Shown: positions 944 to 50,415 of the stretch, in pieces
Layout of the letters: each line of letters opens with the position of its first letter
Position numbering within the stretch: the stretch's first letter is position 1
IMG/VR virus record: IMGVR_UViG_3300027868_000001
Location: 1 to 50,644 of that record
DNA length: 50,644 nt
From: a virus
Reading direction: 5' to 3' (one strand)
Program-made: the position numbers and the translations under genes
Notes under the pieces: model-generated
What the model saw: the letters and a program-made list of their open reading frames with translations, nothing else
What the model was told of the DNA's origin: nothing
The model's database searches: none

Positions 944-1057
944 GATTCTATTATAAGGCTTACGCGTAAGGATGCAAGAACAGGTATAGATTAAAAGTTA
1001 ATTAGCAGGGGTTTGGTTATTACTCACCTATATGTTTATGTGTTAATCAATAAAGTC

Positions 1058-1128
1058 ATGGGGTGGGGGATTCGAACTCCCATTACCGGAGAACTTGTTC
1101 CGGGTCTTACCAATTGGATGAACCCCAT
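1058..1128 (-). tRNA. tRNA-like element / degenerate tRNA (non-canonical)
   Basis: Perfect 7-bp acceptor ATGGGGT/ACCCCAT. T-arm GGGAG-TTCGAAT-CCCCC has one A.C mismatch. Anticodon stem CCGGA/TCCGG encloses an 8-nt loop ACAAGTTC with no U33. D-stem is only ~2 bp. Overlaps the 3' end of CDS 1107-1520. Confidence 0.3.
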
Positions 1129-10131: not shown

Positions 10132-10483
10132 AGCTATCAACTCCTCTCTATTAATTAATAAATACTAAAGCCCGTAGCGTGGGCAAGACGGCAAGATCAC
10201 AGATTAGGACAACAGCTTAGCTCGATAGGCACAGAAGTTATCCAACCCGATGGCAACCACGCCTAACGTCTTCAACTGCTGAAGGAGTAGGATATCGATA
10301 AACGATCACCTTCCGCTCTTGCTGCCAGTGTTATATGCTCCACCGCTGGCTGGGCTAATACGCTTGGAGCTATGTGCTGTGTGGAGTCGAACCACCGCGC
10401 TTTTAACGCTGACGCATAGAAACTTCCTTTCCGCCGCTGCAAGCACCTATGCAGCACTCCAGCACACAGCTTCAAACGTACTC
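10132..10483 (-). ncRNA. ORF-free structured block with multi-stem element and terminator-like 3' hairpin (candidate ncRNA)
   Basis: Only low-complexity overlapping ORFs, no credible CDS. Closing stem GCTGTGT..GGAGT / ACTCC-ACACAGC (10376-10470). Hairpins at 10337-70 and 10270-84. GCCC-N7-GGGC plus a T-rich tail at 10170-84. Confidence 0.4.
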
Positions 10484-49154: not shown

Positions 49155-49244
49155 GTCTTTCCTTTTTGGAAACAGTTGGGCTTACCTCTACCGTAAAGTA
49201 AAATATAAATATTCTTAATGTACTTTTAAGGGGTTTCAGGGTAT

Positions 49245-49403
49245 CTACCGTTGATTATTAGCCGCTCTTTCGGCTATAAACTGTTCTAATTTTTCGTAGA
49301 ATTCGCCACTATTTAAGGCGTCAACGTAAATATTCCACACATCATTGACATCCATATCGTAATCTTTAGCCGCTTGAGTAACGCTGTTCGGGTATGTGGT
49401 CAT
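49245..49403 (-). CDS. micro-protein (52 aa)
   Basis: Hand-translated MTTYPNSVTQAAKDYDMDVNDVWNIYVDALNSGEFYEKLEQFIAERAANNQR. Confidence 0.45.
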   Translation of the reverse strand: MTTYPNSVTQAAKDYDMDVNDVWNIYVDALNSGEFYEKLEQFIAERAANNQR

Positions 49404-49426
49404 ATTCTCTACCGTTAATTAATTGA

Positions 49427-49501
49427 AGCCCCGGACAGGACTCGAACCTGCATCACATTGGATTTATCCGCAGTCGGCATACCAGTTAACCGCACCGGAG
49501 C
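49427..49501 (-). tRNA. tRNA-like module lacking a canonical anticodon arm
   Basis: Acceptor GCTCCGG/CCGGGGC (one U.G pair). D-arm CGGT-TAACTGGTAT-GCCG. T-arm GCAGG-TTCGAGT-CCTGT. The 23 nt in between (ACTGCGGATAAATCCAATGTGAT) form no 5-bp stem with a 7-nt loop. Confidence 0.4.
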
Positions 49502-50076
49502 ATTAAAACCCGCTACTACATACTTCAGCGGGGTGGTGCTGGAGACCGGACGCTAACCCGGCTATCCTCATAGGCCGACAAAGCCTTTATATTGCCTGGC
49601 GGGTCTTCGGGAAGTTCGAGACTACCACCTATTTTGACGCTTTCACGCCTCCCGATTGCGCGGCTTTTTTCAGGTGAGGCACACCAACCTTATAACCTCT
49701 GCGTGTCTGCTTTCCACGCCGCTCCAGCTTAAACCCTCATTGAGGGGTAAAAAGGTTGAAGGCCGGTTGCTGTAAATCGAATCCGGCATCGAAATATTAT
49801 CCCCAGGTTGCACCTGATTTATAATCCAGCCCAAAAGGTGTACACCTCCTACTTAATTTCGGTCAGCGCTCCCGGACTTTAATCTACTGCGACATAGCTT
49901 TACAGGATTATTCGAGCTTCTAAGGCTTTCGCCTCCACTTGCGCATCAGCCTACGCATTCTCCAACCATAAACCCTCATACTGCGAGGGGTACTACATTT
50001 GGATCATGGCCGCCAATGTGCCTCAACACAAGACGGGCATACGCTCCAAATTCTTTCCGCTTCCGTGCGTTATTCG
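49502..50076 (-). ncRNA. candidate large structured ncRNA (~575 nt) immediately 5' of the tRNA-like module
   Basis: No ORF >=60 aa in six frames; all three stop codons are frequent; G+C-richer than neighbours; many perfect hairpins; a duplicated ~30-nt motif at 49722-50 and 49960-93. Confidence 0.45.
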
Positions 50077-50415
50077 TTAAACCTTTAATTTGTTGTACTC
50101 TAATTTGCCTTTTTCCGGATCAGCATAAGTGCCTATTACCTCTCCGCGTAAATAAAGCTTGTAGGTCGGGACATCGTTAATCATTTCTGGCCGTAAATCT
50201 TTGAGTACAATACCGTCCTTAGTCGCAGAGCAAATGCTGCCGGGGTTAATCGGTATCTCTTCGTTATCCTTAATCGAGTTCAGCGCCTTGCGTACATGGC
50301 CAGCCTTGACGGCTTTTTGATCCGCTTGATCAGGTCGGCCATTCCCTCGGTCGTCGCGTTCTTCCTCCTCAATTCCGGCTAAAGCAGTTTCTAGTATTTC
50401 TATTGCTGGGTTCAT
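50077..50415 (-). CDS. hypothetical early protein
   Basis: Start moved to the internal ATG (MNPAIEIL...), just downstream of the upstream gene stop (50423-50425); the track ORF extends to 50466. Confidence 0.6.
   Translation of the reverse strand: MNPAIEILETALAGIEEEERDDRGNGRPDQADQKAVKAGHVRKALNSIKDNEEIPINPGSICSATKDGIVLKDLRPEMINDVPTYKLYLRGEVIGTYADPEKGKLEYNKLKV

Follow-up and report, generated by a model that had tools for sequence, protein, structure and literature searches.

The mascRNA and MEN-beta modules (RF01684), which are 3' modules of vertebrate long noncoding RNAs, form a tRNA-like cloverleaf whose anticodon arm is stunted and has no use in decoding. YrlA-type bacterial and phage Y RNAs mimic the acceptor, T and D elements of a tRNA without an anticodon; this tRNA-like domain is bound with Ro/Rsr, and the 5' and 3' ends of the RNA form a Ro-binding stem and not an acceptor stem. 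Among phages, Acj61t01, a misc_feature at the end of the tRNA cluster of Acinetobacter phage Acj61, is of tRNA ancestry, has a low score and no assignable anticodon. The tRNA-Other of Bacillus cereus is a chromosomal pseudo-tRNA, tRNA-derived and non-translational, for which a regulatory role was shown by deletion; it has kept its anticodon arm (PMC3399842).

In general, odd tRNA-like genes are frequent in phages, and as a group they are little understood. When the tRNA model (RF00005) was run on a sample of 50 further IMG/VR contigs, drawn from the matches of an unrelated chance pattern, seven matches below the cut-off were found in six of the 50. With such a high base rate of odd phage tRNA-likes, the element described below is less surprising. 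The seven matches include a small family: three related viral contigs (L199, L200 and L201, with L198 as a variant) carry a 72-nt tRNA-like element with an encoded CCA, a 4-bp arm and a 12-nt loop (24.2 bits, RF00005). A gene resembling tRNA-Arg(UCU) in a jumbo phage, L003:7130-7207 (+), the same as L188 (G003:106301-106379), has normal acceptor, anticodon and T arms and a D-loop-like segment located 3' of the anticodon arm, and is missed by ARAGORN. In the same 172-kb jumbo phage a 59-nt tRNA-like element, L186:1501-1559 (+) (G003:154678-154736), reaches 38.5 bits with RF00005 and consists of an acceptor stem, a D arm, a T arm and an 8-nt linker, with no anticodon arm. Between 112 and 137 kb of that genome (L189-L197) about seven elements have a T arm together with a stem of 5-6 bp whose pairs covary while its loop, UCUCA, stays invariant, and two of these have inserts of 60-70 nt.

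Here, we describe an element at positions 49427-49501, on the minus strand of a virus genome, that is clearly tRNA-derived, beyond chance resemblance, and whose anticodon loop is reduced to four bases, so that decoding is impossible. The window, a complete phage genome as judged by its 127-bp terminal repeat, is an entire IMG/VR virus record (50,644 bp, 44% GC). Its portal protein is about 26% identical to portals of GenBank phages, the closest being those of Pelagibacter and Vibrio podoviruses. The early region consists mostly of ORFans, with NinG, NinB, RecT, an HNH endonuclease and the small terminase subunit as the recognisable genes, and all genes near the element lie on the minus strand. 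With default settings ARAGORN finds no canonical tRNA or tmRNA in the whole genome. In a domain search of the genome no tRNA-related enzyme, CCA-adding enzyme, Ro/TROVE protein (PF05731) or tyrosine integrase (PF00589) was found, the integrase-size ORFs having no such domain.

The original prediction presented the element as a tRNA-shaped module without a usable anticodon arm and named mascRNA and the Y RNAs as examples of such mimics. The module itself stands. Neither the mascRNA (RF01684) nor the Y RNA models match at E ≤ 10 in the region 49200-50200, and there is no Ro protein in the genome. Further, in contrast to mascRNA, the element is found in a bacteriophage, and a terminator-like hairpin intervenes between it and the upstream block. 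It differs from pseudo-tRNAs of the Acj61t01 type in that the lesion is specific, the loop going from seven to four nucleotides while the rest is clean, and in that it stands alone and not in a cluster. The coordinates of the element and of the other features are given in Table 1.

Table 1. Positions of the tRNA-like element, its parts, its flank and the other tRNA-like elements discussed in the text.
Feature	Position	Strand	Details
Whole tRNA-like element, 75 nt including the discriminator U at 49427	49427..49501	-	Rfam RF00005, 25.2 bits, model positions 1-71
Acceptor stem, 5' strand GCUCCGG	49495..49501	-	7 bp with 49428-49434, including U3.G70
D arm: CGGU, UAACUGGUAU, GCCG	49475..49492	-	Loop contains GG; U8, A14, G18 and G19 present
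23-nt segment in place of position 26, anticodon arm and variable loop	49452..49474	-	Skipped by the tRNA model
Mini-hairpin GGA-UAAA-UCC	49460..49469	-	Minimum-free-energy and centroid folds
T arm GCAGG-UUCGAGU-CCUGU, 5 bp including one G.U	49435..49451	-	Sequence and tRNA model
Acceptor stem, 3' strand CCGGGGC, then U73, then UCA (not CCA)	49428..49434	-	Sequence
Terminator-like hairpin, 7-bp stem, 10-nt loop, then UUUU, 3 nt upstream of the element	49505..49532	-	-10.3 kcal/mol
Second tRNA-like element	1057-1128	-	RF00005, 26.7 bits
Weak third element, long-arm tRNA-like	10372-10469	-	tRNA-Sec model, 20 bits, E = 1.5
67-nt tRNA-like gene of another phage	L168:3135-3201 = G001:64624-64690; also L169:3588-3654	- (L168)	38.1 bits

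Read on the minus strand from 49501 to 49427, the acceptor, D and T arms are exactly as described in the original prediction. All 16 of the 16 acceptor, D and T pairs are intact, and so are the nucleotides of the elbow (U8, A14, G18, G19, G53:C61, U54, U55, C56 and A58). The acceptor and D stems are separated by U8 and G9. The tRNA model reads the D arm with an extra C followed by the stem GGUU/UGCC and the loop AACUGGUA, while in the minimum-free-energy fold the D stem is lengthened to 6 bp through pairing of 49470-49475. It is in the anticodon region that the damage is concentrated. The 23-nt segment has the length of a normal position 26, anticodon arm and variable loop taken together, but no register of it gives an arm of 5 bp with a 7-nt loop (at best 2-3 of 5 pairs form), and the one mini-hairpin that had been proposed to pair there is present in the minimum-free-energy fold. 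One detail of the earlier layout has to be corrected: the total of 75 nt is right, but the A placed before the 23-nt segment is the first base of that segment.

At the Rfam gathering thresholds the element has no match. In sensitive mode RF00005 matches it over its full length, passing over the anticodon arm as a local gap; the score of 25.2 bits lies under the curated cut-off (29 bits), with E = 0.01 in a search of 1 kb and 1.2e-4 in a search of the genome. ARAGORN, the check proposed for a normal cloverleaf, is silent by default, and in relaxed mode reports a "tRNA-???" with a 3/5 stem and a 4-base "anticodon", at a setting that also gives about 20 junk calls. The ViennaRNA folds, both minimum-free-energy and centroid, contain the acceptor stem, a 6-bp D stem, the mini-hairpin and the T arm; the folding energy of the element alone is not significant (z = -1.38). 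Of the features of a canonical tRNA the acceptor stem, the D arm with G18 and G19 and the T arm with a UUCRA loop are present, and the 5-bp anticodon stem with a 7-nt loop (U33, anticodon, purine 37) is missing. Recognisable homology to a tRNA type is combined with a disabling lesion, as in a tRNA pseudogene, and efficient charging of the RNA is unlikely. The tRNA-like domain of a tmRNA was also considered and rejected, as ARAGORN finds no tmRNA and both acceptor strands lie within 75 nt.

To see which tRNA the element is most similar to, it was aligned globally with the phage tRNAs of a panel (23-35 of them). The highest scores are those of tRNA-Cys from Rhizobium phage RHph_X66 (30) and from Acinetobacter phage Acj61 (23); tRNA-Arg scores 21 and most others 12 or below. 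The two tRNA-Cys(GCA) genes (RHph_X66, MW960030 87411-87486, and Acj61t12) share with the element the CCGGUG junction, the AACUGG of the D loop, the GCGGA/UCC flanks of the arm, an identical T arm and the discriminator U73, which is common to the element and both tRNA-Cys genes of the panel. When the tRNA-Cys arm GCGGA-UUGCAAA-UCCGC is set against GCGGA-U---AAA-UCCAA of the element, three loop nucleotides, U33-G34-C35, are gone. The similarity of the arm taken by itself has p ~0.01-0.05 against shuffles. Compared with the phage tRNA-Cys(GCA), the element also has three additional nucleotides ahead of the arm and one additional C behind position 9, the stem of its arm is mismatched at two places in the 3' strand, and its 3' end is UCA instead of the CCA encoded by the intact genes.

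We conclude from these alignments that the element most probably descends from a phage tRNA of the tRNA-Cys(GCA) type. However, the panel behind the Cys assignment is small, the acceptor stem has more in common with that of a phage tRNA-Arg(UCU), and a different deletion of three nucleotides in the loop of tRNA-Tyr could give UAAA. The T arm, which is identical to that of tRNA-Cys in X66 and Acj61, is also identical to that of tRNA-Arg(UCU), and the 24 nt that comprise the T arm and the 3' acceptor strand are found unchanged in a canonical phage tRNA-Arg(UCU) of the viral contig L004 as well as in the odd tRNA-Arg-like gene of the jumbo phage (L003).

The element is not the only tRNA-like sequence in this genome. 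The second one, about 1.5 kb upstream across the circular junction, has an acceptor-like stem of 8 bp and, on its 5-bp arm, an 8-nt loop (ACAAGUUC) that lacks U33; its D stem is down to two pairs, and its T stem contains an A.C mismatch. The upstream ORF of 137 aa (1107-1520) extends across the first 22 nt of this element, where a TAA in the D loop ends it. This second element is more degraded than the one at 49427-49501. In the third, a D-like stem of 6 bp and an extra arm are followed by a T stem of 4 bp that closes the loop UUCGACU, and this T arm has a competing alternative in a 12-bp hairpin. Two or three damaged tRNA-likes and no working one is the look that would be expected of a lineage that is shedding its tRNA genes.

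Upstream of the element is an ORF-free block of 570 nt (49505-50076), somewhat richer in GC. It folds at the level of shuffled sequence (z = -0.09), has no internal direct repeats and matches no Rfam family at E ≤ 10; a large ornate RNA of the GOLLD or ROOL kind was rejected on the same fold score and lack of a match. The terminator-like hairpin that ends the block is not called by a consensus terminator scan because its loop exceeds 8 nt, and a weak Rfam match to P9 takes it for the stem of a terminator. No sigma-70-like promoter was found between the upstream block and the ORF at 49403, and therefore the element is probably co-transcribed with its neighbours. In principle, such a transcript could be cut at the element by host RNase P or RNase Z. 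The suggestion that the element may be an RNase P/Z processing handle, RNase P cleavage then setting the 3' end of the RNA upstream, or a decoy for that RNA was neither supported nor refuted by the computed results. On the minus strand of this region three copies of the motif ACGGTAGAG/T lie in a span of 230 nt (49186-49194, 49243-49251 and 49407-49415), around the starts and the stop of consecutive small ORFs; genome-wide the motif is not enriched, with 9 matches where 6 are expected.

Relatives of the locus were sought in several collections. The 1-kb region around the element has no blastn match among GenBank phages, back-translated searches of IMG/VR with the portal protein and three ORFs next to the element gave no close relative, and HMMER finds the upstream 112-aa ORF as itself alone among 5.8 billion proteins. 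The relatives of NinG are found at 53 metagenome loci that share NinG alone, with no tRNA or tRNA-like gene in synteny. Patterns made of the D arm and T arm gave nothing in viral, metagenome and genome collections (three DNA-pattern scans), and a scan for the acceptor-pair pattern gave chance matches only.

A scan of IMG/VR with a pattern of the mini-arm and T loop, on the other hand, returned L168/L169, L170 and L171. The last two look like chance matches or other fragments. L168 and L169 are 99.9% identical to each other, and the L168 phage is an AT-rich contig of 85.9 kb with a GC of 32%, against 44% in the phage of the window, and the two phages have no proteins in common. The tRNA-like gene of L168 is missed by ARAGORN. 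It contains the identical 12-mer GCGGAUAAAUCC at the same position as the element at 49427-49501; in L168 the model folds this 12-mer into an anticodon stem of 5 bp that closes a loop of 2 nt. The T arm is the same as well; however, the acceptor stem (AGUCUAU/AUAGACA) differs and so does the D arm, which is of Met/Ile/Lys type. When both elements were compared with GenBank phages by blastn, only the T arms matched. One of these matches, in Bordetella phage PHB04, was rejected as a relative, being an ordinary unannotated initiator-type tRNA-Met. The stretch around it (L172:1494-2808, MF663786 at about 45.1-46.4 kb) has three tRNAs, including the initiator-type tRNA-Met, and a permuted tmRNA called by ARAGORN, and the GenBank record lists no features across it.

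The mini-arm match in L168 hints at recurrence and is compatible with independent deletions. About one sixth of the tRNAs in the panel have CGGA/UCCG anticodon stems, and in tRNAs that read codons starting with U the anticodon loop ends in AAA. Because such stems and loop ends are common, and the whole of IMG/VR was scanned for the exact string, independent deletions of three nucleotides would suffice to produce both arms.

Taken together, we lean, with a confidence a little above even, towards the element being the decaying relic of a phage tRNA, probably of tRNA-Cys. This reading is favoured because the element is homologous to a specific type of tRNA and because the phage has further degraded tRNA-likes. 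A tRNA-Cys-type gene would have lost U33-G34-C35, which leaves the UAAA loop, and gained a few bases 5' of the arm, while two mismatches would have eroded the 3' strand of the anticodon stem. The gene would be decaying in a phage that has no working tRNA left. Such a relic is probably still co-transcribed with its minus-strand neighbours and, since the acceptor, T and D half is intact, may still be cut by host RNase P or RNase Z without this having an adaptive role. The tRNA model matching over the full length and skipping the anticodon arm alone, the UCA in place of the CCA encoded by intact phage tRNA-Cys genes, a genome with damaged tRNA-likes and no canonical one, the absence of tRNA-related enzymes, a CCA-adding enzyme or Ro protein, and the frequency of tRNA-like matches below the cut-off in phages are all consistent with decay. 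However, neutral decay that is uniform would not favour damage to the anticodon alone, phages tend to delete useless DNA rapidly, and the identical GCGGA-UAAA-UCC arm and T arm are found on a different tRNA body in the unrelated phage L168/L169.

The main rival reading is a tRNA mimic, exapted by the phage, in which the acceptor, T and D half is kept for recognition by host factors. We find this rather unlikely, but it is kept alive by the concentration of the damage in the anticodon region and by the twin mini-arm in L168. The target may be RNase P, RNase Z, the CCA-adding enzyme of the host or some tRNA-binding protein, and the RNA may punctuate a polycistronic early transcript between the noncoding block and the ORF that begins at 49403, or serve as a decoy. 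As decoding was not needed, the anticodon may have been lost or removed. The top half and the nucleotides of the tertiary contacts are indeed kept while the anticodon arm is destroyed. Further, the element lies in a short intergenic gap between co-oriented genes with the next ATG 23 nt on, and the L168 element, with the same 12-nt mini-arm in an unrelated phage and a score of 38.1 bits, lies in a comparable gap (94 nt, next ATG 18 nt on). The 59-nt element of the jumbo phage also scores well without any anticodon arm. Against a retained function, the search for relatives of the locus gave none and the genes beside it are ORFans, the mini-arm is seen in just one other lineage across IMG/VR and in none of the GenBank phages, and the shared arm can arise independently, since many tRNAs have CGGA/UCCG stems and xU..AAA loops. 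No excess structure is seen in the upstream block, which ends in a terminator-like hairpin, and there is neither a match to the mascRNA or Y RNA models nor a Ro protein. As the locus gave no relatives, its siblings in the genome are degraded and odd tRNA-likes are so frequent in phages, a relic is preferred over a function. Two other possibilities appear far less probable still. A working tRNA with an unconventional anticodon arm, missed by the standard finders, has some precedent, as non-cloverleaf phage tRNAs appear to exist (the tRNA-Arg(UCU) with a permuted D arm in L003 is an example), but we consider it highly improbable: no register offers a 7-nt loop with U33 and purine 37, and the best stem, 3 bp with a loop of 4 nt, cannot present an anticodon. 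Equally improbable is that the element is an attP core, or the remnant of an integration site, that copies the 3' end of a host tRNA. The genes of tRNA-Arg(UCU) are common targets of integration, and the 24 nt of the T arm and 3' acceptor strand equal this tRNA; however, the genome has no tyrosine integrase, and the element includes a matching 5' acceptor strand and a complete D arm that an attP core does not need.

If the element is a relic, it is an ordinary footnote on a phage that is losing its tRNA genes, and for annotators it is a warning that tRNA matches below the threshold are common in phages (6 of the 50 contigs sampled). If, instead, the match of the mini-arm in L168 reflects selection, it would point to a class of non-decoding phage tRNA mimics. 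Unrelated phages would then keep tRNA-shaped RNAs in which the loop is cut to GCGGA-UAAA-UCC, or the arm removed altogether as in the 59-nt element of G003, while the acceptor, T and D half is under selection; such RNAs would serve as non-decoding mimics for punctuation by RNase P/Z or as decoys of host factors that bind or target tRNAs. We regard this broader proposal as unlikely, more so than a retained function of the single element. If true, the roles of these mimics could be those of mRNA processing signals or of decoys against tRNA-directed factors of the host.
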